From contig JBHLON010000015.1 in assembly GCA_048940445.1 (NCBI GenBank), positions 1 to 64,000 on the forward strand: 64,000 nt of DNA, given 5' to 3'. Source of the stretch: Promethearchaeota archaeon (GTDB taxonomy: Archaea; Asgardarchaeota; Lokiarchaeia; Sigyniarchaeales; SOKP01). Position numbers and translations under genes: made by a program. Of this stretch, positions 1-14,460 are shown piece after piece; the first letter of the stretch is position 1; each line of letters opens with the position of its first letter. The notes under the pieces were generated by a model. The model ran no database searches and was not told where the DNA came from. It worked only from the letters and a program-made list of their open reading frames with translations.

Positions 1-1383
1 ATAGTCCATGTAATGGTTCCTCCATTAGGAGAAGCATATTTAGCATCTTATTTAATTAGTCGTGGCCATGAAGTAAAATTACTTGATTTAACTTTAAGTA
101 ATAACTACAAACAAGATATTTCAAAAGCTATATATAGTTTTAATCCGCATGTAATAGGCTTTTCAATTCGAAATATTGATTCCACTACCTACCCCGGAAA
201 TCTGTTTTTTTATCTACCAGTAAAAAATATTATTCAATATATTAAACAACTAGTTGAGCCCGATATTCCAATAATTTTAGGTGGAGCAGGTTTTTCTATA
301 TTTTCTGAAGAAATTTTACGAGATTTAAACCATGATCTAGGTGTTGTTGGGGATGGTGAATTAGCATTTGCTGAAATATTGGATATGATTGAACATCGTA
401 GAGATCCTAGAAAACTTGATCGTGGTATATGCTTTTTAGGAAATAATGGTGAATACCATCAACGTCCACCATGGCGAGTTGAAGATTTAGATGGACTTCC
501 TTTTCCATTAAGAGAATTACTAGATAATAAAGCATATCTCATCGATCCTATGAAAAAATCTGGCCCTATTTGGGCTAATATTCAAACTAAACGAGGTTGT
601 CCTATGCATTGCATTTATTGTAGTTATAAATTTATAGAAGGCTCCAATGTTCGTTACCGATCTCCAAAAAGTATTGCCGAAGAGCTAGATATAATAGTAA
701 ATAATTATGGGATTAAAAATATTTTTATTGTAGACAGTATATTCAACTTAAATTATAATCACGTGAAAGAAACGTGTCAAGAGATAATTAAAGATAAAAT
801 AGACTTTAACTGGGGGGCAAATTACGTACCTAGTAAAAAATTTCTTGATTTAATGCCAATGATGAAAGATAGTGGTGCAATTCATTTTGCTACTGGGATA
901 GAATCTCTCTCTGAAGAGATGCTTAAAAATATGAATAAAGAAAGATCTTCCGATGAGGCGATTATTACTTCAAAAAAGTGTTTTGATTTAGGAATCGAAC
1001 AATTAATACATATGATTGTAGGCGGTCCGGGTGAAACACTTATAAGCGTTCAAAAGTCATTAGATCGGTTAGAAACTATCCAAAGTTATAGACGAAATTT
1101 ATGGCAAGGTGATGGAGATGTGATTCTATTTATTGGAATGAGGATATATCCGCATACTCCACTTCAACATATTGCCGAAAAAGATGGAATCATACAACCT
1201 CATCAGAATTTGCTTAAACCAAGATTTTATTTATCTCCAAAAATTAAGGAAACAGATTTATTCCAATTACTAAGGCATTATGGTATGAAAAACCCTAGGT
1301 GGATGATGCCAGGTCTTGGTTTCAATAATCCAGAAGGGTTTGCTGAATTGAGCCAAACTCAATTCGCAAAATATCAAAGTTAG
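1..1383 (+). CDS. Cobalamin (B12)-binding radical SAM enzyme, 5'-truncated by the window edge
   Basis: N-terminal B12-binding domain (PPLGEAYLASYL..GHEVKLLDL, IILGGAGFS, VGDGE) and QTKRGCPMHCIYC CxxxCxxC motif. The frame is open from base 1 (ata gtc cat gta atg = IVHVM), matching IHHVMVPP in the paralog, so the true start lies upstream of the window. Confidence 0.9.
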   Translation: MVHVMVPPLGEAYLASYLISRGHEVKLLDLTLSNNYKQDISKAIYSFNPHVIGFSIRNIDSTTYPGNLFFYLPVKNIIQYIKQLVEPDIPIILGGAGFSIFSEEILRDLNHDLGVVGDGELAFAEILDMIEHRRDPRKLDRGICFLGNNGEYHQRPPWRVEDLDGLPFPLRELLDNKAYLIDPMKKSGPIWANIQTKRGCPMHCIYCSYKFIEGSNVRYRSPKSIAEELDIIVNNYGIKNIFIVDSIFNLNYNHVKETCQEIIKDKIDFNWGANYVPSKKFLDLMPMMKDSGAIHFATGIESLSEEMLKNMNKERSSDEAIITSKKCFDLGIEQLIHMIVGGPGETLISVQKSLDRLETIQSYRRNLWQGDGDVILFIGMRIYPHTPLQHIAEKDGIIQPHQNLLKPRFYLSPKIKETDLFQLLRHYGMKNPRWMMPGLGFNNPEGFAELSQTQFAKYQS

Positions 1384-1412
1384 CTAATTACACTAGTAAA
1401 AAGGGAAAAAAA

Positions 1413-2585
1413 ATGAAATGGCAATCAGAAGTAGAAGATCTTTTTGAAAAGATAGTATTAGGAATACCAGAAATGGTAAGACCAGCGGTAAAACCAGCAC
1501 TTTTTGAAGCTGCTGAAAAAAAATGTGTTGAACGTCAAGCAAAAGAAGTAGCTGAGATTGATTTGGTGGTGGCATTATTTGAAGTGACACCACCCGCTTT
1601 CCAACCTACTATGATAGAAGATCTTAGGGAATTTGGTGTAGATTATGATAAGTATGTACCAAAAGTGGAGTCCAATTTTAAGTGTAATACAGATCTCGGT
1701 CAAATGGTTAAAGATATTTTGAAGATCGGAAAAATAACAGGAGTGAGGTGTAATGAGAATGCAATATGGAGAGCCATAAATGTTTATAAGCCCTTTTTTT
1801 CAGGATCTCCTGTATCAATTAGAACAACGACAAAACCCGTAGAAAGAAGAGATATCGCTGTAAGATATGTAGAATTTTTTGTCCCTCACAATCCAGATCC
1901 TTATAAGACAGCTATCAATGAAGGTTTATTAAATAAAAATGGGCATCCTATTCATGAAATGATAGTTGAAGCAATTGAAACTTTTGATATAATGGGTTAC
2001 GGTGTTGATGTTGATGCTAGTACCGGCTTATCGAAAATTTGGCCATTTATTGTTCCTGGTTCAATTGATCCTATTTTCTTAATAAAATCAATACCAGAAA
2101 GTATGAAAAAATATAGAAATTACTTAAATAAACATGGTTTAACTTCATTTAGTCTTTTTGCTTTTGACTTTTTACATAATACGACAAATATATATTTCAT
2201 GCTTAAGCAACCAGCAAAATCAGCATATGGTAATTGTATTGCATTGGTGGAGGATTTAGGATTCAAACCTGCATCAAAAGATATAATGGAAAGTTGTAGG
2301 AATGCTGTACATCTGAATTATACGTTTAATTGGGACTCACCCAAAATAGAACGCTTATGTTTCGGTATGGCATGTGACGATGCTTCAGAGGTTCCAATGC
2401 ATTTACATCCACTGATTAAAGATTTTGCTGAAAATACACCACTTCAAAGTGATTCTCATAAATTTATTTGGGGAGTGACTTTCACAAGAAAGGGTCTATA
2501 TTACAAGATCGAAAACGATTATAATGGAGCTATGGTAGATTTTTTAGGTATGGGTTGTAAAGCAGGATTAGATTCATATTACTAA
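1413..2585 (+). CDS. ABBA-family (NphB/CloQ-like) soluble aromatic prenyltransferase with an N-terminal DUF2621/PCP_red-like helical domain
   Basis: Residues ~90-390 follow NphB motif order: DPYKTAINEGL..GHP, YGVDVDASTGLSKIWPF, SIPESM, NIYF, FNWDSPKIERLCF, WGVTF...YYKIENDY. The first ~80 aa match the C-terminal module of the neighbouring U32 proteins. Confidence 0.85.
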   Translation: MKWQSEVEDLFEKIVLGIPEMVRPAVKPALFEAAEKKCVERQAKEVAEIDLVVALFEVTPPAFQPTMIEDLREFGVDYDKYVPKVESNFKCNTDLGQMVKDILKIGKITGVRCNENAIWRAINVYKPFFSGSPVSIRTTTKPVERRDIAVRYVEFFVPHNPDPYKTAINEGLLNKNGHPIHEMIVEAIETFDIMGYGVDVDASTGLSKIWPFIVPGSIDPIFLIKSIPESMKKYRNYLNKHGLTSFSLFAFDFLHNTTNIYFMLKQPAKSAYGNCIALVEDLGFKPASKDIMESCRNAVHLNYTFNWDSPKIERLCFGMACDDASEVPMHLHPLIKDFAENTPLQSDSHKFIWGVTFTRKGLYYKIENDYNGAMVDFLGMGCKAGLDSYY

Positions 2586-2615
2586 AAAAAGATTCAAAAT
2601 TATAAAAATAAGGAG

Positions 2616-3017
2616 GTGAAATGTGTTATGGAAACAAAAGAAGAATGGAAAGATTATCTAACGCGATTTATGAAAGCTTATAATGAGTTACCTGATTTGA
2701 AACCATTATTGGGTCCAATTGCACCATTAGTTTTTCAATATGAAATAACTGATAAACCTGAGATGAGTTACTGGCAATTTATTGATAAAGATAAAATGAG
2801 CTGGGGAATGGGTCAATATTCTGGTATAGAGGCTCCAACAGTAATCCATAAAACAAATTTTGAGACGATTAAGAAAGTTAATTCGGGAGAATCGGACCCA
2901 ATTCAAGCAACTATGTCCGGAACATATGTTATTGAAGGCGATGTTAGTAAACTCATGGCATGCGCACCTTTGTTGCCACTTAATGCAAAAGCTCACGAAA
3001 TTGCTAAAAATAATTAA
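2616..3017 (+). CDS. SCP2 sterol/lipid-binding domain protein
   Basis: SCP2-like C-terminal signature SGESDPIQATMSGTYVIEGDVSKLM; 133 aa; paralog at 4583. Confidence 0.75.
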   Translation: MKCVMETKEEWKDYLTRFMKAYNELPDLKPLLGPIAPLVFQYEITDKPEMSYWQFIDKDKMSWGMGQYSGIEAPTVIHKTNFETIKKVNSGESDPIQATMSGTYVIEGDVSKLMACAPLLPLNAKAHEIAKNN

Positions 3018-3137
3018 AAAAATAAAAAACAAACATAAGTTGTTTATTTAACAACATAATTAACATTTTTTTTAATAATTAAAGAAATAAATTAAAAATT
3101 CGATATGTAAACCAAATATTTTTAGAGAGCAAGGAAA

Positions 3138-4553
3138 ATGCGTGCGTTAATAATTAATGGGAGTCGAGAAATACATCATGTAATGGTACCCCCAATAGGT
3201 GATGTGTATCTCGCTGCGTATCTTATAAGTCAAGGACATGAAGTAAAGTTAGTTGATTTAGCTCTTAGTAGAGACTTTAAGCGAGATATATCAAACGCGA
3301 TTGACTCTTTCAAACCACATTTAATAGGTATTACTATTCGTAATGTGGACTCCGCAACCTATCCTGGAGTTCTCTACTTCTACTTGTCAGTAAGAAATGT
3401 TATTCTTTATGTTAAACAAATTGCAGAACCTAACATTCCTATAGTGCTCGGAGGTGCTGGTTTTTCCATGTTCTCAGAAGAGATTCTAAGAGATTTAAAC
3501 CACAATTTGGGTGTTTATGGGGATGGAGAATATGTAATTGCTGAGATTTTAAAATATATAAAAGATGGAAGGAATCTTAAAAAAATAGAACGAGGTATAT
3601 GCTTCATCGACAAAAATGGAAAATATTATCAAACTCCCCCTTGGCGTGTCGAAAATTTGGACGATTTGCCTGTTCCAGCTAGACAATTGCTAGATAATAG
3701 TAGTTATTTATATCATCCTGTAATTAATGGCGGAGAAAGTTGGGGAAATATCCAAACTAAACGAGGTTGTCCGATGAATTGTATTTATTGTAGTTACAAA
3801 AACATTGAAGGATCCTCCGTTCGATATCGTTCCCCAGAAATGGTAGCAGATGAGCTTGATTTTATAGTCAATAACATTGGGATCAAAAATATTTTTATAG
3901 TAGATAGCGTTCTCAATTTAAATTATAATCATCTGAAAGAGATATGTCAACAAATCATAGAGTATAAAATTGATATTAATTGGGGGGCAAATTATGTTCC
4001 ATCCAAAGAGTACATCGATTTAATGCCACTAATGAAAAAAAGTGGCGCGATTCATTTTGCTACGGGATTCGAATCGCTATCCGAGGATATGTTAAAAAAT
4101 TTGAATAAAACTGGATCCCCGGATGATGCTATTCTTACTTCAAAGAAATGCGTTGAGTTAGGTATTGAACAATTAATACATATTATGGTAGGAGGACCGG
4201 GGGAAACGATTCAGAGCATCCGAGTTTCATTAGATCGATTAACTACCATTAAAAATTTTAAAGCTAATTTATGGCAGGGAGAAGAAGATGTGTTAATTTT
4301 TGTAGGCTTGAGAATATACCCTAACACGCAACTTAATTTTATTGCTGAACAAGAAGGCGTTATCCCAATAGGAGAAAACCTGCTCAAACCAAAATTTTAT
4401 ATTTCTCCCCAAATCAATGAATTAGATTTATTTAATTTAATAAGAGAATATAGTGAAAGTAATCGCAAATGGATGGTTCCAGGTCTCGGTATTAATCTTC
4501 CAAAAGGTGAAGCCGAACTGAGCCAGATGCAGCTTGAGTTATATCAAAAATAA
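3138..4553 (+). CDS. Cobalamin-binding radical SAM enzyme (paralog of 1..1383)
   Basis: B12-binding N-terminus and QTKRGCPMNCIYC; colinear with the first copy along its whole length. Confidence 0.9.
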   Translation: MRALIINGSREIHHVMVPPIGDVYLAAYLISQGHEVKLVDLALSRDFKRDISNAIDSFKPHLIGITIRNVDSATYPGVLYFYLSVRNVILYVKQIAEPNIPIVLGGAGFSMFSEEILRDLNHNLGVYGDGEYVIAEILKYIKDGRNLKKIERGICFIDKNGKYYQTPPWRVENLDDLPVPARQLLDNSSYLYHPVINGGESWGNIQTKRGCPMNCIYCSYKNIEGSSVRYRSPEMVADELDFIVNNIGIKNIFIVDSVLNLNYNHLKEICQQIIEYKIDINWGANYVPSKEYIDLMPLMKKSGAIHFATGFESLSEDMLKNLNKTGSPDDAILTSKKCVELGIEQLIHIMVGGPGETIQSIRVSLDRLTTIKNFKANLWQGEEDVLIFVGLRIYPNTQLNFIAEQEGVIPIGENLLKPKFYISPQINELDLFNLIREYSESNRKWMVPGLGINLPKGEAELSQMQLELYQK

Positions 4554-4582
4554 AAAAATAAAACCAAATAAAAAGGAAAGAG

Positions 4583-4981
4583 ATGAAAATAGAAATGAAT
4601 ACAAAAAAAGATTGGGAAGCATATCTAACAAAATTTTTTAAAGCATATAACGAATTACCTGGGCTAAAGCCTGGGTTAAAACCAATAGCACCATTAGTCT
4701 TCCAATATATTATATCAGATAAACCAGAAATGAATTTTTGGGAATTATTCGAAAAAGCTGAGGTAAAATGGGGAATGGGGAAATATTTAGGGCCAAATGT
4801 ACCGAAAACAATTCATAAAACGGATTTTGAGACAATAAAAAAGGTAGTCTCAGGTGAGTCCGACCCTGTTCAAGCTACAATAGCTGGGTCATATACTATT
4901 GAAGGTGACTTCACGAAATTAACAGCATGTTCAGCTTTATTGCCACTGAATCCAAAAGCCCACGCAATAGCGATTAAATAA
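4583..4981 (+). CDS. SCP2 sterol/lipid-binding domain protein (paralog)
   Basis: SGESDPVQATIAGSYTIEGDFTKL; colinear with 2616..3017. Confidence 0.75.
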   Translation: MKIEMNTKKDWEAYLTKFFKAYNELPGLKPGLKPIAPLVFQYIISDKPEMNFWELFEKAEVKWGMGKYLGPNVPKTIHKTDFETIKKVVSGESDPVQATIAGSYTIEGDFTKLTACSALLPLNPKAHAIAIK

Positions 4982-5109
4982 AATAATCCGAAAAAAAATG
5001 TCCGAATCTAGCTTAATATAAAATGTAATTAAGAAATCAATATCTCAAAAAAATTAGACAAAAAACTAAATAAATTATGTTTTAAAATTCTAAAAAAAGG
5101 TGAAGAAAA

Positions 5110-6801
5110 ATTAATTTTTATGTAGCAACGAATTGGGACCCAAATCTTATAGATGAATTGGCGAAATTACCTGTTATCGATGTCTACGGTACAGCCCCTC
5201 ATTCGGTCGTAGGATCTGGGCGTCCATCCGTTTTGTTAAAAGATATCGATGAGGAAGAGATTATAGAACATATTAATAAAGTGCATAAGAATAAAATGAC
5301 ATTTTCTTACGTACTGAATGCTCCTTGTATGAATAATATGGAATACGATCCATATTATCATAAAGAGTTGCTCAAACTTTTGCAATGGATTAGCGATATT
5401 GGTGCTGATAATGTTATTGTGACGATTCCTTTATTAATACAACTTATTAAGGAGCAATTCCCTAAACTCAAAGTGCGCGTGTCAACCATATCTCATGTAA
5501 ATAGCGTGAATCGTGCAAAGTTTTACGAATCGCTTGGTGCTGATGAAATTACTCCCGATGTAATGATCAATCGCGACTTTAAGACTTTAGAAAAAATACG
5601 AGAAAATGTAAAATGTAAAATTGTCTTACTCTTAACAGATGGGTGCTTATATCAATGTCCATTTAGGATTTACCATTATAATACACTGGGGCACGCTTCT
5701 CAGAGTTACCAACAGTTTGAACGCCGTTATATTGAAACATGTGTCTTAAATTGTAGTCTTATCAAATTTTCAGATCCTACTGAAGCGATAAAGTGTAGAT
5801 GGGTTCGTCCTGAAGATTTATCTCATTACGAGGCAATTGGAATCAATAATTTTAAAATCGCCGGACGTATTATGCCTACTTCTTGGATTGTTAGATCGGT
5901 TAAAGCTTTTTCATCCCGAAAATATGAGGGAAATCTTATAGATATCATTGAAGGGTTCTCAAATTCGGTTCCCGAAGGATTAGACAATGTTTCTCAAAAA
6001 GGATTTAAAGATACCCTCGGAAAAGAATATAAGTCAAAATTATATATAGACAACACCAAATTAAATGGTTTTATTGACTTCTTTAAGAAACAAAATTGTA
6101 TAGCGATGTGTGATGATTGTAATTATTGCGCAGAATGGGCAAAAAAAGCAGTATATTTGGATAAAGAAGAAGCAAGTAAATATGTCGAATCTGTACGAGA
6201 ATACATGGAAGACATATTAACAAGTCGCGAATTCGGTGTCGCATCTGCTAAACCAAAAAAAGAGAAAAAGACGGAGCTTCCGTGGAATCCGGAAACAGCG
6301 AAAATTTTTAGCGAGATAATAAAATTAATACCTCTTCAATTTCAATCGTTGGCACGAATGACTATTTCTTCGCTAGCAGAAGAAAAAACAAGAAAGAAGA
6401 ACTCTCAAGAGGTAAACAACCAAGAAATGGTGGAAGCATTCATTGAGGGCACGCCAAGTGCATTTCAAGCTAGTATGAGAGAAGGTCTTGAAAAATATGG
6501 ATTGATAACTTGCGAAGTTGGTGTCGAATCTATTAAACCTAAAGAAGAGCAAAAAGCAGGTCTTTCATGGAATTTAGAAACTGCAAAACTATTTGATGAG
6601 CTCGTGAAATTAACGCCTCCTCAATTTCAATCGATAGCAAAGATGGCAATCTCTTCGCTTGCTGAAGAAAAAGCGAAAAAGAGGAGTTCTCAAGAGGTAA
6701 ACAACCAAGATATGATAGAAGCGTTTATGGAAGGCACCCCAAGCACATTTCAAGCTACTATGAGAGAAGGTCTTAAAAAATATGGATTGTTGAATGATTA
6801 A
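5110..6801 (+). CDS. Peptidase U32-family Fe-S protein (putative O2-independent hydroxylase) with two C-terminal DUF2621/PCP_red-like repeats
   Basis: U32-type motifs FSYVLNAPC, GADEIT..INRDF, GCLYQCP, RPEDL..Y..IGI..FKIAGR, plus CIAMCDDCNYC. The frame is open from 5104. The likely start is ATT at 5110, after AGGTGA, giving (M)NFYVATNWDPNL. Confidence 0.8.
   Translation: MNFYVATNWDPNLIDELAKLPVIDVYGTAPHSVVGSGRPSVLLKDIDEEEIIEHINKVHKNKMTFSYVLNAPCMNNMEYDPYYHKELLKLLQWISDIGADNVIVTIPLLIQLIKEQFPKLKVRVSTISHVNSVNRAKFYESLGADEITPDVMINRDFKTLEKIRENVKCKIVLLLTDGCLYQCPFRIYHYNTLGHASQSYQQFERRYIETCVLNCSLIKFSDPTEAIKCRWVRPEDLSHYEAIGINNFKIAGRIMPTSWIVRSVKAFSSRKYEGNLIDIIEGFSNSVPEGLDNVSQKGFKDTLGKEYKSKLYIDNTKLNGFIDFFKKQNCIAMCDDCNYCAEWAKKAVYLDKEEASKYVESVREYMEDILTSREFGVASAKPKKEKKTELPWNPETAKIFSEIIKLIPLQFQSLARMTISSLAEEKTRKKNSQEVNNQEMVEAFIEGTPSAFQASMREGLEKYGLITCEVGVESIKPKEEQKAGLSWNLETAKLFDELVKLTPPQFQSIAKMAISSLAEEKAKKRSSQEVNNQDMIEAFMEGTPSTFQATMREGLKKYGLLND
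6226..6795 (+). repeat. Intragenic tandem duplication (period 285 nt / 95 aa) of the C-terminal helical module
   Basis: cgcgaattcggtgtcgcatctgctaaacc at 6226 vs tgcgaagttggtgtcgaatctattaaacc at 6511. The protein repeats W.ETAK.F...P.QFQS.A.M.ISSLAEEK....SQEVNNQ.M.EAF.EGTPS.FQA.MREGL.KYGL. Confidence 0.9.
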
Positions 6802-6894
6802 GCAAATTAATAAAACATTAATATAAAAATAAACAAAAGTTATTGTAAAAAAAATCGAAAAAAAAATTTAAAACTCTAAAAAAGGTGAAGAAAA

Positions 6895-8298
6895 ATTAGT
6901 TTTCATGTAGCAACGAATTGGGACCCAAATCTTTTAGAAGAATTAGCGAAATTTCCTGTTGTTGATGTCTACGGATCAGCTCCTAAGTCGATTGTAGGAG
7001 GTGGCCGTCCATTCTTCTTGTTAAAAAATGTGAATGATGAGGCGATTACCGAATATATTAGAGAAGTACATAAGAAGAAAATGACATTTTCTTACGCTTT
7101 GAATGCTCCCTGTATGAATAATATGGAATACGACCCAAATTATCATAAAGAGCTGCTTAAATATTTGCAATGGATTAGCGATATTGGTACAGATTATATT
7201 ATTGTGTCTATTCCATTATTAATACAACTTATTAAGGAGCAGTTCCCTAAACTTAAAATACGTGTGTCAACCGTCTCTCATGTAAATAGCGTGAATCGCG
7301 CAAAATTTTACGAGTCGTTTGGAGCGGATGAGATTACCACTGATTATATGATTAATCGTGATTTCAAGACTTTAGAAAAAATACGAAAATCAGTAAAATG
7401 TAATATCATTTTACTCTGTTCAGATGGGTGTTTGTATCAATGTCCGTTTAGATTATACCATTATAATATCTTAGGACATGCTTCTCAAACTTTCCAACAG
7501 TTTGGATGCTACTATATTGACACATGCGTCTTAAACTGTAGTACTATAAAATATTCAAATCCTACTGAGGTTATAAAATGTAGATGGATTCGTCCCGAGG
7601 ATTTATCTCACTACGAAGCTATTGGAATCAATAGTTTTAAAATTGCAGGGCGCTCAATGCCCACTTCATGGATTGTCAGATCGGTAAGAGCATTTTCATC
7701 TCGAAAATACGAGGGAAATCTCACGGATATTCTTGAAGCGTTTCGATTTTCGTTTGGAGATGCACAAGAAAAAGATCCAGCTACAGGATTTAAAGAAACC
7801 CTCGGAAAAGAATCAACAAAATTAATAATCGATAATACTAAGTTAAACGGTTTTATTGAATTCTTTAAGAAACAAAATTGTATAGCAATGTGTGGAGATT
7901 GTAATTATTGTGCAGAATGGGCGAAAAAAGCAGTATATATAGATAAAGAAGAAGCGGGTAAATATGTTGAATCTATTAAAGGATACATGAAAGAAATATT
8001 GACAAGTCGCGAATTTGGTGTAGAATCTGCTAAATCTAAAGAACAGAAAAAATCATGTTTTCCATGGAATCCGGAGACGGCGAAAATTTTTGACGAGCTA
8101 ATAAAAGAAACACCTCGCCAATTTCAATCTATGGCCCGATTGATAATTTCTTCGGCAGCAGAAGAAAAGGCAAAAACTAGGAACTCTCACGAGGTAAACA
8201 ACCAAGATATAATCGAAGCATTTATTGAAGGTACGCCAAACGCATTTCAAACCAGCATGAAAGAAGGTCTTAAAAAGTATGGGCTTCTGAATAATTAA
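6895..8298 (+). CDS. Peptidase U32-family Fe-S protein, paralog with one C-terminal DUF2621/PCP_red-like module
   Basis: Same motifs as 5110..6801. The frame is open upstream of the listed TTG (7018) back to ATT at 6895, giving (M)SFHVATNWDPNLLEELAKFPVVDVYG, again preceded by AGGTGA. Confidence 0.8.
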   Translation: MSFHVATNWDPNLLEELAKFPVVDVYGSAPKSIVGGGRPFFLLKNVNDEAITEYIREVHKKKMTFSYALNAPCMNNMEYDPNYHKELLKYLQWISDIGTDYIIVSIPLLIQLIKEQFPKLKIRVSTVSHVNSVNRAKFYESFGADEITTDYMINRDFKTLEKIRKSVKCNIILLCSDGCLYQCPFRLYHYNILGHASQTFQQFGCYYIDTCVLNCSTIKYSNPTEVIKCRWIRPEDLSHYEAIGINSFKIAGRSMPTSWIVRSVRAFSSRKYEGNLTDILEAFRFSFGDAQEKDPATGFKETLGKESTKLIIDNTKLNGFIEFFKKQNCIAMCGDCNYCAEWAKKAVYIDKEEAGKYVESIKGYMKEILTSREFGVESAKSKEQKKSCFPWNPETAKIFDELIKETPRQFQSMARLIISSAAEEKAKTRNSHEVNNQDIIEAFIEGTPNAFQTSMKEGLKKYGLLNN

Positions 8299-8339
8299 TT
8301 CCTTTAACGTAATTCTATACAAGGTAATTTGTAAGATTA

Positions 8340-8690
8340 AACTCTCCTTATATGAATAATATGGAATAAGATCAGCAATATCATGAATTGCTCTTTAAAT
8401 ACTTAGTAATGGATTGATGTTATTAGTACTAATAATGTTATTGTTTCTATTTTTTCTTAATACAACTTATTAAAGAGTTATTCCCTAACTTTAATTCCTG
8501 GACTAAAGTCCCAATAGTTATTCATAAAACAAACTTTAAAACAATTAAAAAAGTTAATTCAGGAGAGTCTGACCCAATTCAGGTGGTTATATCAGGAACT
8601 TATCTTTCTGAACAAGATGTGAGTAAACCTATGATATGTTCACTTTTGTTGCCACTGAATGTAAAAATTTACTTAAGAGCGATTCAAAAA
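8340..8690 (+). pseudogene. Degraded chimeric remnant: U32 gene fragment joined to an SCP2 gene fragment
   Basis: ~8340-8495 (atgaataatatggaataagat...taatacaacttattaaagagttattccctaa) matches U32 nt ~5325-5470 with stops and indels. ~8500-8685 (ttcataaaacaaactttaaaacaattaaaaaagttaattcaggagagtctgacccaattcag...ttgttgccactgaatg) matches the 3' half of the SCP2 genes. Confidence 0.85.
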
Positions 8691-8873
8691 AAAGAATATA
8701 GAAAAACATTATTACAGAAACATTAAGGTATAAAATTAAGTAGAAATGTTATTTGAACCTATTTAAAGAGAAATTTTTTTTCTAGATTTTTATTTTATAT
8801 TACTTCTAAATATAAAATTTTTATATTCGAAATTTAATAATAATAATAACTAAAATTACAAAAACTTGATACT

Positions 8874-9275
8874 ATGAAAGAAGTTAGAGTGATCACAATC
8901 GATAATAGAGGTAGAATTGTAATTCCTCAGCTAATTCGAAAGAGTTTAGGGCTGAGTACAAATTCACAGCTTATGTTAGTGGCTGATTCAGAAAATAAAG
9001 AGATTAAAATCACGCCTATAGGATTATCAGATGAAAAAAGTCCAATAAAGCTAAGAGTAACTATGAAAGATGCTCCTGGTGCACTTGCCAAACTTGCTGG
9101 TACTTTTGGTGAACAAGGACTTAGTATGATGTATAGTGAAGCTGTGATCATTGAAAGGGATAAGACCGCTGAATGGACAGTCATTGCAGAGAGTCCAGAT
9201 AATCTAGAAGAGCTTAAAAAGGTTTTAAGAGAAAAAGGAGAAGCTATAAAAGTGGAGATTCTTCCGTTAGAATAA
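8874..9275 (+). CDS. AbrB/MazE/SpoVT DNA-binding domain fused to an ACT domain (ligand-responsive regulator)
   Basis: TIDNRGRIVIPQLIRKSLGL (AbrB) and MKDAPGALAKLAGTF (ACT). Confidence 0.85.
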   Translation: MKEVRVITIDNRGRIVIPQLIRKSLGLSTNSQLMLVADSENKEIKITPIGLSDEKSPIKLRVTMKDAPGALAKLAGTFGEQGLSMMYSEAVIIERDKTAEWTVIAESPDNLEELKKVLREKGEAIKVEILPLE

Positions 9276-9306
9276 TATAATAAATATAATGTGTTGATCA
9301 CTTCAC

Positions 9307-10062
9307 ATGGGAAAAAAAAAGAAGAAAGATAAAGGAAAAGAAGGAGATTCGGTTTCTAATTATACCCTTGATGGCGCATTAAAAAGTTCAAAAAAAACTG
9401 AGACAGCTTTGCAAGATTTGCTTAAAGCATTCTCAGAAGATATGGGTTATATAGCATTAAAAGAAGAAGATAAGAAAATTGAACCTCAACTTTCCTATGA
9501 AGCAAAAAAGAAAGTTGCTGAAGATTACGTGATGGAAGAAGTTCCATTATCGGAACGAGACAAAACAAAGGAGAGAATTCCAGTTAGAAAAGACATAAAA
9601 GAGCAAAATATTCAGGCTAAAATTGAAGTTTCAGAAAAAAAGAAGGAAATAATAGCACCAGTAGAAGAACCCATTAAAAAGCCTTCATTTTCTAAGAAGG
9701 ATAATGTGTATCTCAAATTATCTCAATTCTTTGAAGGCATTTTTCAAGGATATAATGAGCGTTATGAGATGTGGGAGAATTCAGTATCAGCAATTTTAGC
9801 AATTCTAAGGAAAATGAGGAAAATTACAAAGAAAAATACTGAAGATTTAGTTAGTTCAATTAATAAACTGCATGAAAAAATTCAATTTAATTTAGAACAA
9901 TTTAAAATTAAGCGAGACGAAGTTGAGAGACTTTCAGATGTGGACATTGAATCCATGTCGAGCGAATTTAAAAAAGTATTAGGTTTATTGGAGTTACAAA
10001 TTAAAGAATACCAACTTAAAAGACTTGCCGATGAATACGTTCATCAGCATAGAATTCTTTAA
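9307..10062 (+). CDS. Hypothetical protein, charged N-terminus and helical/coiled-coil C-terminus
   Basis: 251-aa ORF with operon-like spacing (31 bp) to its upstream neighbour. Confidence 0.7.
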   Translation: MGKKKKKDKGKEGDSVSNYTLDGALKSSKKTETALQDLLKAFSEDMGYIALKEEDKKIEPQLSYEAKKKVAEDYVMEEVPLSERDKTKERIPVRKDIKEQNIQAKIEVSEKKKEIIAPVEEPIKKPSFSKKDNVYLKLSQFFEGIFQGYNERYEMWENSVSAILAILRKMRKITKKNTEDLVSSINKLHEKIQFNLEQFKIKRDEVERLSDVDIESMSSEFKKVLGLLELQIKEYQLKRLADEYVHQHRIL

Positions 10063-10092
10063 TTTTGGAATTAATATGTAATAAGATTATTT

Positions 10093-11235
10093 ATGTCATC
10101 GAAATTAAGAGACCAAACTGCTCCTTTAATAATTGACATTGGGACTTCAAATTCCAGAATAGGATGGGCGGGTGATGACTTTCCAGATATTGTTGCTCCA
10201 AGTGTATATGTTGACGTTTCTGATTATTTATTCACATCTGATGTTATTGAAGGACTAGAAGAATTGTTTTTAAAGAAGGAACAGATCTCTCATTTAGTTG
10301 GACATCAAGCATTAAAATATCAAAATATTCTAAAAGTTCATGAATTTAAAAAAGAAAATAATTTTAACATTCTTCTTAAATTTTTTTTGTATTATTACAA
10401 ACAGTTAAAAATTGATGATGAATATCAATTTAAACAACCTTTAGTTATCTTATCTCCGTTTTTCATATCAGATTTGGAGAAATCAAAATTACAAGATCTG
10501 TTTTTTAATTCCTTAAAATTTCCCTCAATTCTTTTCTTAAATGAAAGTCAAGCTATCCTTTCCACACTTCAAAAAGATAGCGGTGTTATAGTGAGTATGG
10601 GTGAATCCCATACTTATATATCTACAATTTTTCATGGTTTTACAAATATAATGGCTAAAGACGTTTTTCCAATTGCGGGTAAAGATTTAACAAATTATTT
10701 CTTGAATTTGATTTTAACCCGCATTAGTACATCGAAAAATATTTATATAGATAAACCGATTGCAAAAGAAATTAAGGAAAAGCTATCATTATGTGTTTTA
10801 AATCCTCAAGAGGAACAAAAAAGAGTGAAAAGTGGTTTTACAAAATATGATAGAGTGATCGATCTTCCTGATGGATCTAACTTAAAAATAAATTTAGAAC
10901 GTTTCTTACTATCTGAACCCTTATTTAATCCAAAATTAGCTCATATCGATTATATTGATCTTGGGGAAGCAATTTCAAAAGTAATTAAAACATGGGAAAG
11001 AGAAAATTGGGAAGAATTGTTAACTAATATTATATTATCGGGTGGAGGGAGTTTAATTACGGGATTAGATCAAAGAATTCGAATGGAATTACAAAAGCAC
11101 TTTTCCGAAAAATTAAATGATAAAATTAAGGTTATAGCTGCTTCTGGTAGAGAGAATATGGGTTGGATAGGTGCTTCTATCCTATATACAAAAGGAAAGC
11201 TGGATAAAGGCTGGATTGATAACCCTGACTTTTAA
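10093..11235 (+). CDS. Divergent actin-related protein (Asgard ARP)
   Basis: Actin fold motifs: LIIDIGTSNSRIGWAGDDFP (phosphate 1), AGKDLTNY, KEIKEKL, LPDG, ERF..EPLFNP, NIILSGGGS (adenosine), WIGASIL. Confidence 0.9.
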   Translation: MSSKLRDQTAPLIIDIGTSNSRIGWAGDDFPDIVAPSVYVDVSDYLFTSDVIEGLEELFLKKEQISHLVGHQALKYQNILKVHEFKKENNFNILLKFFLYYYKQLKIDDEYQFKQPLVILSPFFISDLEKSKLQDLFFNSLKFPSILFLNESQAILSTLQKDSGVIVSMGESHTYISTIFHGFTNIMAKDVFPIAGKDLTNYFLNLILTRISTSKNIYIDKPIAKEIKEKLSLCVLNPQEEQKRVKSGFTKYDRVIDLPDGSNLKINLERFLLSEPLFNPKLAHIDYIDLGEAISKVIKTWERENWEELLTNIILSGGGSLITGLDQRIRMELQKHFSEKLNDKIKVIAASGRENMGWIGASILYTKGKLDKGWIDNPDF

Positions 11236-11261
11236 CCTAAAATTATAGTGAGTACATAATT

Positions 11262-13838
11262 ATGAACGCAAACTTAAGTAAAAAAAGCAATTTTTTAGAG
11301 GATTTCCAACAGAAAGTAATACAAGGTAGACGTTTATTACAATCAGGAAACCATAGGTGGGCAGATAGATTATTAACTGATCTTTATTTTGAGATTGAAA
11401 AAAATGATTGGTTGGATATTCAGAAAAAACATCAATTGATGATGATCATCTCAAATTCTTGGTGGATGTACATTAATTCCCTGATTCAAAGAAAAGAAGG
11501 AAAAATTGATTTTGATATAATTAAATATATTGATGCGTATAAACGATTCTTTTCATTTTTATCAAAGATTGATGATTTTTATCTTTTTAATAACTTTGGA
11601 ACTATGCTTCTTAAATCATTTATTAACTTAAAAGAATTATCCCAACAAGGGATTACTAAATATATAAATTCGTTTAGTGCAAAAGTTATAGAAAAGGAAG
11701 AATTTCAAAAGTTAATTGAATTGCAGATTTTGCTAATGTATTTGAGAAAATCTGTTCTACCTCAAGAATTTTTTCATTATGCCACAGAAATATTAGGAAG
11801 AACTCTTTTTAAACTAGAACCGAATAAGAGAGCATTATTCTTATTTATTTTTTTAGAAAATGTAAATTATAAATATAATCTTTTGGAAGATTCATCAGAA
11901 TTCGTCCAAATCATAACTAAAATTTTAGCCAATCGTCTCCCAGGATACTTAAAGGATGAATTCAGTAAATTAAGCAGAATTTCGATAAACGAAAGAAATT
12001 TTGAAGAGATTTTAGTAGATCTTGAGGATTTAATTTTTTATTTGAATAATATTGGAGAATTTTCATGGATAATGATCATAATTAAAAATCTCTTCGAAAA
12101 AGTACAGAAATTTCAATCTTTTGTTGATGCAATTTCTTATATAAGAAAATTTATAGATTTTGCCATTACACGTAATAGGTTTGAGATAGCATTCGAAATT
12201 TATGACTTTCTTGAAGATTTATTTATGACACAAACTGATTTAGGATACGATAAGGTCTTAATTGAATTATGGGTTGAAGCTTGTAAGAAATTCGTTGATA
12301 TGAAGGAAAAAAGATATCTCTTACAGGCTCTAGAAAAACTAAACACTCATTTAAAAATACCTCAAACTAACTCTCAATTACTTCATTATTTTTTAACTTG
12401 CAATTATCTATGGCAATTTAATTCGATATTTTTTTCATTAGAATCTAAGGATTTTTGGCGTATGATGTTCTATCGTGCCTTATTTGAAGAAAAAGATTAT
12501 GATCTTGCTCGTAAGATTATTGAATATTTAGATAAAAATATCAGATCTGTTATTTTAGATCCTGCTATTTTATATAATGAAACTGAATCATTACAACAAA
12601 ATATGTATACATTTGAAGAAAAATCCTTCCATTTTGAATTAGAACAATTCTTTATAAAGCAAATAATTTTTCGAATTAATAGAGACGGTTTAATATCTTA
12701 TAGAATGATGTCAGAAGATGGTAAAGTCATCGATGGAAGAGTTTTAAATGAATATTGGAATGATGCACAAATTAATGAAATTTATAATGATATCTTTTCT
12801 GATAATAGAGATAAGAAATATGATTTCGATCTCATGGAATTTGGTAAATTACTATATGTTTTTCTCCCTAAACCGATAAGAAAACTTTTAAGACGATTTG
12901 AAATTAAAACTTTAACATTTGTACCAGAAATCTATTTTATACTCGATCAAATGACGATTCCTTTTGAATTAATTTATGATAATAATTTCTTTTTATTGAA
13001 ATATTCAATAGGATATATAATCGGTGAAACACCTTTAGGAGGAGTCAAATTTGAGAAGGATATAAAAGAAGAAATTACTAATAGTTTACAAAAATATCAT
13101 GTATTATTAATTGACTCTGTAAATTCTCTCGGACCATTCAGGTGGAACGAAACTACGAAGAGTAAAGAATTAATTTTTCCATTTGCCTCTGGTTCTAACG
13201 AGATAAATTTTATTACCGAATTTTTTAATAAAAGAAATGAAGTTGAAAGTATCACAATATTAACAGGAATTAATTCTACAAAAGAAGCTATATTATCAAA
13301 TGTAACAAAGAGTCCAAATCATGTTATTCATTTTGTTGGAAATCTTTTTTACTCACATTGGAATCCAAATGATAGTTTTTTCATCACAAATGATAATCAA
13401 ATAATTACGATAAAGGAAATTCTTTATTCGATAAGAAGAAATTCTTCAAGCATTAAACCATTCTTATTTTTCAATACGCAAGTTTTTGATATTAATGGAA
13501 AAAAGATTAAGAATGCCCCCAACAGTTTAGGAGATGTTGCGAAACAGTTTGATTATGAAGAAATTACTGGTATTGTGACTCGAAATTATCCTATATTTGA
13601 TGATGAGACAAAAGAAATTAACGCTAATTTTTATATTAACTTATTTAGCAAAAACAATCAAGGGATATCACTTTTAAAAGCACGCCAAATTTGTATGTCT
13701 AATAGAGTAACTAAACTTGTAGAAAGCAAAGTTAAAGATTTAAGTGATACAAAAGGAAGTATGAGTATTGATTTGCAAAGCTCTTTAGCTATTTCAAGTT
13801 ACATGCTTTTCGGAAAACCTTGGAAAAAGTTAAGTTAA
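11262..13838 (+). CDS. Large helical-repeat protein with a C-terminal CHAT (caspase/separase-like) domain, catalytic residues apparently lost
   Basis: CHAT-like motifs: FGKLLY, IPFELIYD, VIHFVGN (cf. HFAGHG), FLFFNTQ (cf. VFLNAC), SLLKARQ, SYMLFGKP (cf. YVLYGDP). Confidence 0.65.
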   Translation: MNANLSKKSNFLEDFQQKVIQGRRLLQSGNHRWADRLLTDLYFEIEKNDWLDIQKKHQLMMIISNSWWMYINSLIQRKEGKIDFDIIKYIDAYKRFFSFLSKIDDFYLFNNFGTMLLKSFINLKELSQQGITKYINSFSAKVIEKEEFQKLIELQILLMYLRKSVLPQEFFHYATEILGRTLFKLEPNKRALFLFIFLENVNYKYNLLEDSSEFVQIITKILANRLPGYLKDEFSKLSRISINERNFEEILVDLEDLIFYLNNIGEFSWIMIIIKNLFEKVQKFQSFVDAISYIRKFIDFAITRNRFEIAFEIYDFLEDLFMTQTDLGYDKVLIELWVEACKKFVDMKEKRYLLQALEKLNTHLKIPQTNSQLLHYFLTCNYLWQFNSIFFSLESKDFWRMMFYRALFEEKDYDLARKIIEYLDKNIRSVILDPAILYNETESLQQNMYTFEEKSFHFELEQFFIKQIIFRINRDGLISYRMMSEDGKVIDGRVLNEYWNDAQINEIYNDIFSDNRDKKYDFDLMEFGKLLYVFLPKPIRKLLRRFEIKTLTFVPEIYFILDQMTIPFELIYDNNFFLLKYSIGYIIGETPLGGVKFEKDIKEEITNSLQKYHVLLIDSVNSLGPFRWNETTKSKELIFPFASGSNEINFITEFFNKRNEVESITILTGINSTKEAILSNVTKSPNHVIHFVGNLFYSHWNPNDSFFITNDNQIITIKEILYSIRRNSSSIKPFLFFNTQVFDINGKKIKNAPNSLGDVAKQFDYEEITGIVTRNYPIFDDETKEINANFYINLFSKNNQGISLLKARQICMSNRVTKLVESKVKDLSDTKGSMSIDLQSSLAISSYMLFGKPWKKLS

Positions 13839-13920
13839 AGCTAAATTTCTTTTAACAAATATTTATAAAAATTTGGTATTTTAGATAGTATATAAAAATT
13901 AATTTAATTAAGATTTAGTT

Positions 13921-14460
13921 TTGTCAGAAAATAGACTTATTGAGCTTCGGATTGAAAACCAGAACCTTAAGAGACAAGTACAAGATTTAGAAAGTAAAGT
14001 TTTAACCCTAGTAGGGATGGTGAATTTAGTTTCTTCAGGTGGCCCAGATGTGAAATATCGATTAAATGATGAATTGATTGAATTTTTTAATTCAACAAAT
14101 ACACAGTTGAATATAGTATCTCCAAAAGTGGATAATTTTTACGCTATAGAGTTAAAAAGATTAGCAAAAAGGGAAATTCCAATTTTAATGATTACAAATG
14201 ATAGAGGGGGGATTCCAAAAGGTTATCAAGAAGTTTACGATGATCTAAAACAAACAGAGGGAATAAATATAATAAATAATCCTAATGTAAGATACTTATT
14301 GGTATTTAATTCTGAAAAAGCTATGTATTCGGGGGGATCATTAGATAAGGATGAATTAGAAAAATCCGTATTAATTGTAACCACCGTGAAAGAAACAACA
14401 AAATTAAGAAGCATTGCACAGATTTTTAGTATGATGCTTCCAACTTTTATGAGAAAATAA
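13921..14460 (+). CDS. Coiled-coil plus PLD-like fold protein lacking the HKD motif
   Basis: N-terminal heptads, then LNIVSPKV, ILMIT, NVRYLLVFNSEKAMYSGGSL, where PLD nucleases have H.K....D....GS.N. Confidence 0.5.
   Translation: MSENRLIELRIENQNLKRQVQDLESKVLTLVGMVNLVSSGGPDVKYRLNDELIEFFNSTNTQLNIVSPKVDNFYAIELKRLAKREIPILMITNDRGGIPKGYQEVYDDLKQTEGINIINNPNVRYLLVFNSEKAMYSGGSLDKDELEKSVLIVTTVKETTKLRSIAQIFSMMLPTFMRK

Follow-up and report, generated by a model that had tools for sequence, protein, structure and literature searches.

A gene cluster of Loki-type Asgard archaea joining an ABBA prenyltransferase to SCP2, U32, and radical SAM proteins: a candidate module for oxygen-independent prenyl-aromatic chemistry

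All characterized reactions of U32-family proteins take place on aromatic or heteroaromatic rings; prephenate has been proposed as the oxygen donor in U32 hydroxylation, and most U32 subfamilies are without a known substrate (PMC10990095). UbiU and UbiV, the U32 members of the UbiT-UbiU-UbiV system of Escherichia coli, carry the cysteine motifs CX6CX16CX38C or CXnCX12CX3C (PMC6747719). ABBA prenyltransferases use C5, C10, and C15 donors (PMC3871700, 2013) and are also capable of N-prenylation (PMC3871700). Features of both enzyme systems meet at the left end of the stretch analyzed here, 64,000 nucleotides of a Promethearchaeota archaeon (contig JBHLON010000015.1 of assembly GCA_048940445.1; hereafter the window). 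This gene cluster is genuine and undescribed and belongs to Loki-type Asgard archaea; in it an ABBA prenyltransferase stands among SCP2 proteins, U32 proteins, and B12-binding radical S-adenosylmethionine (SAM) enzymes. The module to which they belong probably prenylates, oxidizes, hydroxylates, and methylates a single SCP2-bound intermediate, itself probably aromatic, without O2.

A first-pass annotation, made from the window alone, had described seven co-oriented genes in the order radical SAM, prenyltransferase, SCP2, radical SAM, SCP2, U32, U32, and this order holds, with all seven on the + strand within 1-8298. The cluster and its right border are as follows:

1-1383, + strand: B12-binding radical SAM enzyme, copy 1 (PF02310 and PF04055); the 5′ end is cut by the contig end, with about 11 residues missing
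1413-2585, + strand: ABBA (CloQ/NphB-family) prenyltransferase of the soluble, Mg-independent type (PF11468, E 1.6e-51)
2628-3017, + strand: SCP2 protein a (SCP2a), lipid-carrier family (PF02036); begins at ATG 2628 behind GGAGGTGA, the open reading frame (ORF) finder having taken GTG 2616
3138-4553, + strand: second copy of the B12-binding radical SAM enzyme, sharing 67% identity with the first and on a long branch; such a second copy is atypical for the operon
4583-4981, + strand: SCP2 protein b (SCP2b), 65% identical to SCP2a
5110-6801, + strand: U32-family Fe-S protein a (U32a; PF01136, PF11084), with an inferred ATT start and two C-terminal DUF2621-like domains
6895-8298, + strand: U32-family Fe-S protein b (U32b; PF01136), with an inferred ATT start and one C-terminal DUF2621-like domain
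8337-8687, + strand: relic, made up of a U32 fragment with in-frame stops (8337-8494) and the C-terminal half of an SCP2 gene (8505-8687), by blastn/tblastn
8874-9275, + strand: AbrB/MazE-ACT regulator, the right border of the cluster, which directly follows SCP2 in the closest relatives (L021, L026, L098)

Searches with hidden Markov models (HMMs) recovered the proposed domains, namely PF11468, PF02310 with PF04055, PF01136, and PF02036 in SCP2a (30.1 bits, cut-off 21.3); SCP2b, at 18 bits, stays under the cut-off. The genes also travel together, as had been anticipated: 31 of the 32 prenyltransferase-positive genomes encode a window-type U32. No paper describing this gene combination was found in the open literature, nor one on a small-molecule or unusual-lipid pathway of such kind in Asgard archaea, and nothing relevant was found on DUF2621 or on LuxE/LuxC with U32, subscription papers lying mostly outside the search.

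The best evidence that these enzymes probably share one hydrophobic intermediate comes from SCP2 fusions. In other genomes SCP2 is fused to U32 (12 loci), to radical SAM/SPASM enzymes (5 proteins), and to the prenyltransferase (e.g. P0050, P0071, P0105, P0243). Because SCP2 is joined to each of them in different genomes, the prenyltransferase, U32, and SPASM enzymes probably act on one hydrophobic substrate, in keeping with the earlier proposal that the SCP2 proteins are lipid carriers within a single pathway.

The prenyltransferase scores 175.8 bits against PF11468 (cut-off 22), and its predicted model (pLDDT 96) is a ten-stranded antiparallel PT barrel, with closest structural matches to AmbP1 (Z 34.6), NphB (32.1), EpzP (31.5), and CloQ (31.4). 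In EpzP, the diphosphate-binding residues of the Mg-independent ABBA members are R49, R62, K117, N172, Y174, Y220, R232, and K283 (PMC3485228). When these are mapped through a HMMER alignment with a two-residue offset, R137, R151, K208, N259, Y261, R314, and K365 are kept and the Y220 position is N302. Nine residues (R137, R151, K208, W210, N259, Y261, R314, K365, and E367) are invariant in 35 Loki-type prenyltransferases. The assignment to the NphB/CloQ type made at first pass is thus sound. Relatives at 60-78% identity are encoded mostly by metagenome-assembled genomes of Promethearchaeota (Lokiarchaeota). Bacterial homologs with the same N-terminal domain include that of Acetivibrio clariflavus, and a type I isopentenyl diphosphate (IPP) isomerase is the partner in 2 of 4 loci examined; since two bacterial relatives are paired with this isomerase, dimethylallyl diphosphate (DMAPP) is pointed to as the donor. 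The two loci, L070:10001-11716 (A. clariflavus CP003065) and L073, are two-gene units of domain-bearing prenyltransferase and type I IPP isomerase in anaerobic bacteria.

The U32 proteins form a group of their own. U32a and U32b score 47.6 and 52.8 bits against PF01136 (cut-off 22.4), with the alignments confined to model positions 2-65 of 233, and the best hit among solved structures, none of them close, was 5d88 (E 7e-7). Eight cysteines of U32b (73, 179, 183, 215 and 329, 333, 336, 339) are 100% conserved in 118-119 homologs, and these two groups of four suggest two Fe-S sites per protein. In a tree with the known families, the operon U32s make up a separate clade (support 100/100) apart from UbiU, UbiV, RlhA, and TrhP, to which they are joined by long branches. 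BLAST against UbiU gave E ~0.02, UbiV gave no match, and the motif spacing differs. If the proteins were instead tRNA or rRNA hydroxylases, their neighborhood would be incidental. The sole NCBIfam U32 match is indeed to TrhP, at a weak 29.7 bits against a cut-off of 534, and DUF3656 was not matched. However, the operon U32s do not group with RlhA or TrhP, the host genome has two other U32s (contigs C73 and C67) that both fall inside the canonical UbiU/UbiV/RlhA/TrhP group, and U32-SCP2 fusions recur in the 12 loci. The RNA-hydroxylase reading, which the first-pass annotation had named as one that would refute its proposal, is already largely refuted and is exceedingly improbable.

A supply of chorismate-derived metabolites is available, as the host genome encodes chorismate synthase and chorismate mutase. 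On a Bacillus wiedmannii plasmid (CP024685; L060:10655-21300), genes for chorismate-derived metabolites surround another U32 from this clade, with an MFS transporter, aminodeoxychorismate (ADC) mutase, two ATP-grasp proteins, pabAB, and aroF. This plasmid cluster is possibly an uncharacterized one for an aminophenyl-derived metabolite.

A helical domain of ~80 residues is common to the prenyltransferase (N-terminal, encoded at ~1413-1660), U32a (two copies, with HMM matches at residues 394-471 and 489-565 of the open frame), and U32b (one copy). Against PF11084 (cut-off 27.7) U32a scores 46.8 bits, U32b 26.2, and the prenyltransferase 14.4. The domain model (pLDDT 93) resembles DUF2621 clusters in the Atlas (TM 0.81-0.92) and PCP_red (0.67). 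Its best PDB match is the lid of the AAA+ protein BchI (Z 8.2, rmsd 2.8 over 72 aligned residues), and PCP_red nuclear magnetic resonance structures give Z 5.2-6.0, values that are middling for helical domains. The domain spans three unrelated enzyme classes and has moved between N- and C-terminus in relatives; it may serve as a docking module. A complex prediction with SCP2 scored 0.00, which carries no weight either way, and in bacteria the domain occurs on prenyltransferases that have no SCP2 gene close by. A proposed rule that the domain decays whenever SCP2 is fused was dropped: U32-SCP2 fusions score 23-36 bits and SPASM-SCP2 fusions are without the domain, but four prenyltransferase-SCP2 fusions keep it (108-115 bits). 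Elsewhere in the host genome it occurs only on a third U32, at C104:61554-64618 (L053). That gene sits beside a TIGR04190-like B12-radical SAM gene as a detached piece of the same operon.

The operon as a whole was reconstructed from 26 genome loci and 8 metagenome loci, plus one Thermoplasmata genome. Its usual 5′ part comprises a TIGR04190-like B12-radical SAM gene (the one that in the host genome accompanies the third U32), a poorly conserved membrane ORF, two domain-bearing radical SAM/SPASM genes, and then the window-type B12-radical SAM gene. The 3′ part continues, sometimes after a radical SAM/SPASM-SCP2 fusion, with the prenyltransferase, either SCP2 or a degenerate U32 and a U32-domain-SCP2 fusion, and the window-type U32. 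The window genes are thus the 3′ part of a larger operon, and the two radical SAM/SPASM genes probably represent core steps encoded outside the window. In distant genomes the order is shuffled and the shared domain lies at the C-terminus of the prenyltransferase.

The B12-radical SAM enzymes of the window likely methylate. Their best-scoring NCBIfam equivalogs are TIGR04072, a lipid biosynthesis family (copy 1 268 and copy 2 249 bits, under the cut-off of 360), and the benzimidazole methyltransferase BzaD, TIGR04385 (210 and 200 bits, under 450). They have the same B12-binding and radical SAM architecture and an intact CxxxCxxC motif, but BzaA/B/F are not among the neighbors in the operon loci examined. 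The upstream SPASM enzymes of relatives match best the alternative heme synthesis decarboxylases AhbD/AhbC/NirJ (134-138 bits), from which they differ in falling far under the cut-off of 500 and in carrying the DUF2621-like domain. A tetrapyrrole substrate, suggested by the likeness to AhbD and PCP_red, was rejected, given these scores and the lack of tetrapyrrole genes among the annotated neighbors.

From the genes, folds, conserved sites, fusions, and co-occurrence described above, we infer the following reactions. The ABBA enzyme would add a short prenyl group (C5-C15, most likely from DMAPP) to an aromatic acceptor, probably shikimate-derived. SCP2 would hold the hydrophobic intermediate and hand it between enzymes. 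The two AhbD/NirJ-like radical SAM/SPASM enzymes may then carry out radical oxidative steps, for which decarboxylation or ring closure would be guesses. By analogy with UbiU/V, RlhA, and TrhP, the U32 proteins would hydroxylate without O2, plausibly with prephenate as the oxygen donor, and a B12-radical SAM enzyme may optionally C-methylate. Finally, judging by genomic linkage, a LuxE-like adenylating enzyme, a cytidine diphosphate (CDP)-alcohol phosphotransferase, and a GT2 could activate or attach the product. In aminocoumarin pathways, 4-hydroxyphenylpyruvate is prenylated, oxidized to a prenyl-hydroxybenzoate, and ligated by an adenylating enzyme; an oxygen-free version of this logic would fit, as a lead only.

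This last step would turn the operon into an accessory, oxygen-independent module that decorates a membrane glyco(phospho)lipid with a prenyl-aromatic group, an extension that is the favored one among the fates considered but is put forward tentatively. A CDP-alcohol phosphotransferase ortholog is present in 27 of 29 prenyltransferase-positive family genomes versus 33 of 106 negative ones, the two exceptions being 71% and 89% complete. It also occurs in 7/7 family members with U32 but no prenyltransferase, making 34/36 module-bearing family genomes. The LuxE ortholog follows suit (23/29 positive versus 22/106 negative). In 16 of 23 long loci a CDP-alcohol phosphotransferase, GT2, or LuxE-like gene lies inside the locus, in at least four arrangements (upstream-divergent, downstream-convergent, co-oriented, and interleaved); family f3 has the co-oriented run CDP-alcohol phosphotransferase-GT2-U32-LuxE-LuxC. 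Since the distribution of the operon nests within that of the phosphotransferase, the operon is suggested to be an add-on to a more widespread glycolipid system. The host genome carries a candidate glycolipid pathway that is operon-linked in relatives, a nine-gene locus (C101:137000-145700; L095) of CDP-alcohol phosphotransferase, three GT2s, LuxE-like protein, radical SAM enzyme, hydrolase, LbH acyltransferase, and polysaccharide deacetylase. At C85:268-4664 of the same genome stand three tandem B12-radical SAM paralogs, whose relatives flank phosphotransferase/GT2 genes in L033, L085, and L091. Within the window, a LuxE-like acyl-protein synthetase paralog (PF04443; 48067-49266, - strand), ~34% identical to the operon-linked LuxE, lies near fatty-acid degradation-like genes.

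The same chemistry could instead yield a free meroterpenoid (an antioxidant, radical scavenger, signal, or antimicrobial), with the glycolipid genes only sharing a variable region. The closest solved relatives of the prenyltransferase, AmbP1/AmbP3, EpzP, NphB, and CloQ, are secondary-metabolite enzymes, and the distribution of the operon is patchy. In the Thermoplasmata copy, the genes for prenyltransferase, SPASM enzymes, and SCP2 do not have glycolipid genes around them, and the closest relatives of the window locus adjoin AbrB and an actin-like gene instead. Set against this are the nesting with the phosphotransferase in those 34 of 36 genomes, a linkage kept through several rearrangements, and, in other families, U32 genes interleaved with glycolipid genes. 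A free product is unlikely, if worth keeping in play. The boldest proposal, which covers either form, is an undescribed Lokiarchaeia membrane glycolipid or free lipid with a prenylated, hydroxylated, C-methylated aromatic group, built without oxygen on SCP2 by a metabolon that a dedicated DUF2621-like domain holds together; its U32 proteins would be hydroxylases of a new, two-cluster class, and its radical SAM enzymes would take on steps for which aerobes use oxygenases. Taken as a whole it is doubtful.

Several observations weigh against the prenyl-aromatic module and its glycolipid extension. The near-complete genomes G247 and G214 keep U32, SCP2, and B12-radical SAM genes without a prenyltransferase; prenylation would thus be optional, and the module may have a core substrate other than the one that is prenylated. 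The two radical SAM/SPASM genes and the membrane ORF have no ortholog in the host assembly. The genomes are kin, so that the co-occurrence counts overstate the association and the contrast is descriptive only. The host's phosphotransferase/GT2/LuxE locus is on a separate contig (C101), and the CDP-alcohol phosphotransferase is also found in those 33 family genomes without prenyltransferase. Prenyltransferase-positive genomes from other families (G060, 94% complete, G057, and G183) yielded no phosphotransferase ortholog at E 1e-50.

Versions of the module without the prenyltransferase (G247, G212, G214, G038, G039, G059) also favor a non-aromatic substrate, such as an archaeal isoprenoid lipid, its sugar or inositol head group, or a small peptide, with optional O-, N-, or C-prenylation. 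The nearest B12-radical SAM model is the lipid-biosynthesis family TIGR04072, and radical SAM/SPASM enzymes frequently act on peptides. The N-prenylation known from ABBA enzymes (PMC3871700) would suit such a substrate too. Nevertheless, every characterized U32 reaction involves an aromatic or heteroaromatic ring (PMC10990095), the prenyltransferase belongs to the CloQ/NphB family (Z 31-35) rather than to the PatF/PagF peptide type (Z 14-15), and the loci hold no conserved precursor-like ORF of >=80 aa, which makes this alternative quite unlikely next to an aromatic one. Among prenyltransferase-free loci, L050 (G059:C117) combines B12-radical SAM genes, a domain-bearing U32, a protein without a Pfam match, two DUF2284 proteins, and DUF362, along with aldehyde-dehydrogenase-like genes and a second, canonical U32. 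A second module type (L052, G012:C6; L029) places a divergent domain-bearing radical SAM/SPASM enzyme, a divergent SCP2, an FAD-binding oxidoreductase, and a CCG-domain Fe-S protein beside U32.

The first-pass annotation had proposed a soluble pathway that bypasses UbiA and leads to a quinone-like electron carrier or a meroterpenoid; the carrier version is taken up here. The pairing of SCP2 with U32 does parallel UbiT-UbiU-UbiV, including the ubiT-ubiU fusion of Zymomonas (PMC6747719). Relatives carry two divergent U32 genes that overlap, and SCP2 is fused to one of the two. The MqnA/MqnD family was not found in the host genome, hence no futalosine-type quinone route is already in place. The enzymes that would use such a carrier are a different matter. 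In the 93% complete host genome, the NuoH, NarI/HdrE, NrfD, and cytochrome b families were not detected (ETF:quinone oxidoreductase, NDH-2, and similar monotopic enzymes lay outside the search). NuoH was found in 6 of 161 genomes of the class and NarI in 0 of 161, and neither occurs in any of the 32 prenyltransferase-positive genomes. The prenyltransferase is itself patchy, being found in 32 of 400 genomes of the phylum, all of one class (29/135 in the family, 10/42 in the genus, 0/14 in family f2). Among high-quality genomes only 13 of 90 are positive, so that searches of most near-complete kin came back empty, and given this distribution an essential electron carrier is unexpected. The C5-C15 donors of ABBA enzymes (PMC3871700) are, moreover, short for a respiratory quinone. 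The quinone idea is poorly supported and weakened by the genomes searched, and is now very unlikely.

The copy number of the window genes had likewise been read as two methylations and two hydroxylations. In the closest relatives, G017 and G019, the operon ends prenyltransferase-SCP2-AbrB, so the segment 3138-8687 is extra material between SCP2a and AbrB. B12-radical SAM copy 1 groups with the G017 ortholog (support 1.0) and is the ortholog of the relatives' single copy (the search recovered just one copy in 22 of 24 prenyltransferase-positive genomes), while copy 2, on its long branch, does not group with copy 1. U32a and U32b are sister paralogs (97/98) and not a UbiU/UbiV-type pair, and the reading as fixed double steps does not stand. 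All three duplicate pairs are under purifying selection: by a simple Nei-Gojobori count the ratio of nonsynonymous to synonymous substitution (dN/dS) ranges over 0.12-0.22, with ~0.14 for the radical SAM copies and ~0.12 for the SCP2 pair. The extra copies look functional, yet set no conserved step count; in this genome they probably diversify the product rather than adding fixed steps. The decayed U32/SCP2 copy noted earlier is confirmed: 8337-8494 corresponds to U32 residues ~69-122 and is riddled with stop codons, the relic DNA is ~76-78% identical to the intact copies, and it is also present on contigs from independent metagenomes. As contigs of independent mangrove/sediment metagenomes cover 43-7130 (one piece) and 7101-9600 (another), the duplications are real and not an assembly artifact.

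Both U32 genes most likely begin at ATT. Upstream of the first standard start codon their frames stay open for another ~16 and ~41 codons, and the ATT codons lie 6 nt after AGGTGA. At this position ~20 orthologs have ATT, ATA, or ATC and two have ATG or GTG, with an in-frame stop immediately before in four. Gene callers shorten these proteins (426 and 547 aa in databases), and the C104 copy also has such a start. A rough genome-wide count of 70 codons 5-7 nt after AGGTGA gave ATT 9, ATA 9, ATG 9, TTG 8, and GTG 6, hinting that AUH start codons are common in the lineage.

Position 1 of the window is the first base of its contig (C119) in a genome of 3.64 Mb (G000). The expected continuation past the left edge is borne out by one Logan contig that runs 1,685 nt beyond; no overlapping contig end was found in the assembly, and no same-species contig continuing the edge was found among the metagenome matches at JGI. 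The SPASM pair of this genome probably lies beyond that edge. To the right, 8874-14460 holds the AbrB-ACT regulator, an ORF without assignment, a protein that looks actin-like on visual inspection of its sequence (10093-11235), an 858-aa protein, and a small ORF, in synteny with the closest relatives. A promoter and terminator scan of the window stayed at chance level, the model being bacterial and the host archaeal.

Among the soluble, expressible proteins that the operon offers are an ABBA prenyltransferase from an archaeon and members of a U32 clade in which a second Fe-S site is probable, along with the small domain common to them, on which there is no literature. Its prenyltransferase subfamily also occurs in the cultured A. 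clariflavus DSM 19732, making the chemistry testable now. The product, if found, would be a possible biomarker for some of the Lokiarchaeia, and it would reveal how aromatic lipids are modified by anaerobes. The genomes lend no support to the stronger claim, that of a novel respiratory electron carrier close to the eukaryotic root.

With CloQ/NphB-family enzymes (AmbP1, AmbP3, EpzP, NphB, CloQ) the Loki-type prenyltransferase shares the PT barrel (Z 31-35, rmsd 2.3-2.7 over ~280 residues), the Mg-independent arginine pair, and a Glu where CloQ has its base, E281. It differs in its low identity of only 21-32%, its added DUF2621-like domain, and its archaeal anaerobe host; its operon neighbors are Fe-S radical and U32 enzymes, whereas the bacterial clusters contain polyketide synthases, oxygenases, and halogenases. 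With UbiT-UbiU-UbiV of E. coli the operon has in common an SCP2 protein adjoining or fused to U32 Fe-S proteins, an anaerobic host, and a supply of chorismate/prephenate (PMC6747719, PMC10990095). Compared pairwise, however, the operon SCP2 and UbiT are not significantly similar (E 0.16), and the U32 cysteines, C-x105-C-x3-C-x31-C and C-x3-C-x2-C-x2-C, differ in layout from those of UbiU/UbiV. The operon U32s are a distant, separate clade, and the two in the window are recent paralogs. An ABBA enzyme takes the place of UbiA, and radical SAM enzymes that of UbiE/UbiG; the genome does encode four UbiA-family proteins, but at other loci. The cluster, with its ABBA and radical SAM enzymes rather than a UbiA-type enzyme and UbiE/UbiG, falls outside the UbiTUV pathway, and the operon works partly like UbiTUV and partly like the meroterpenoid clusters of bacteria.

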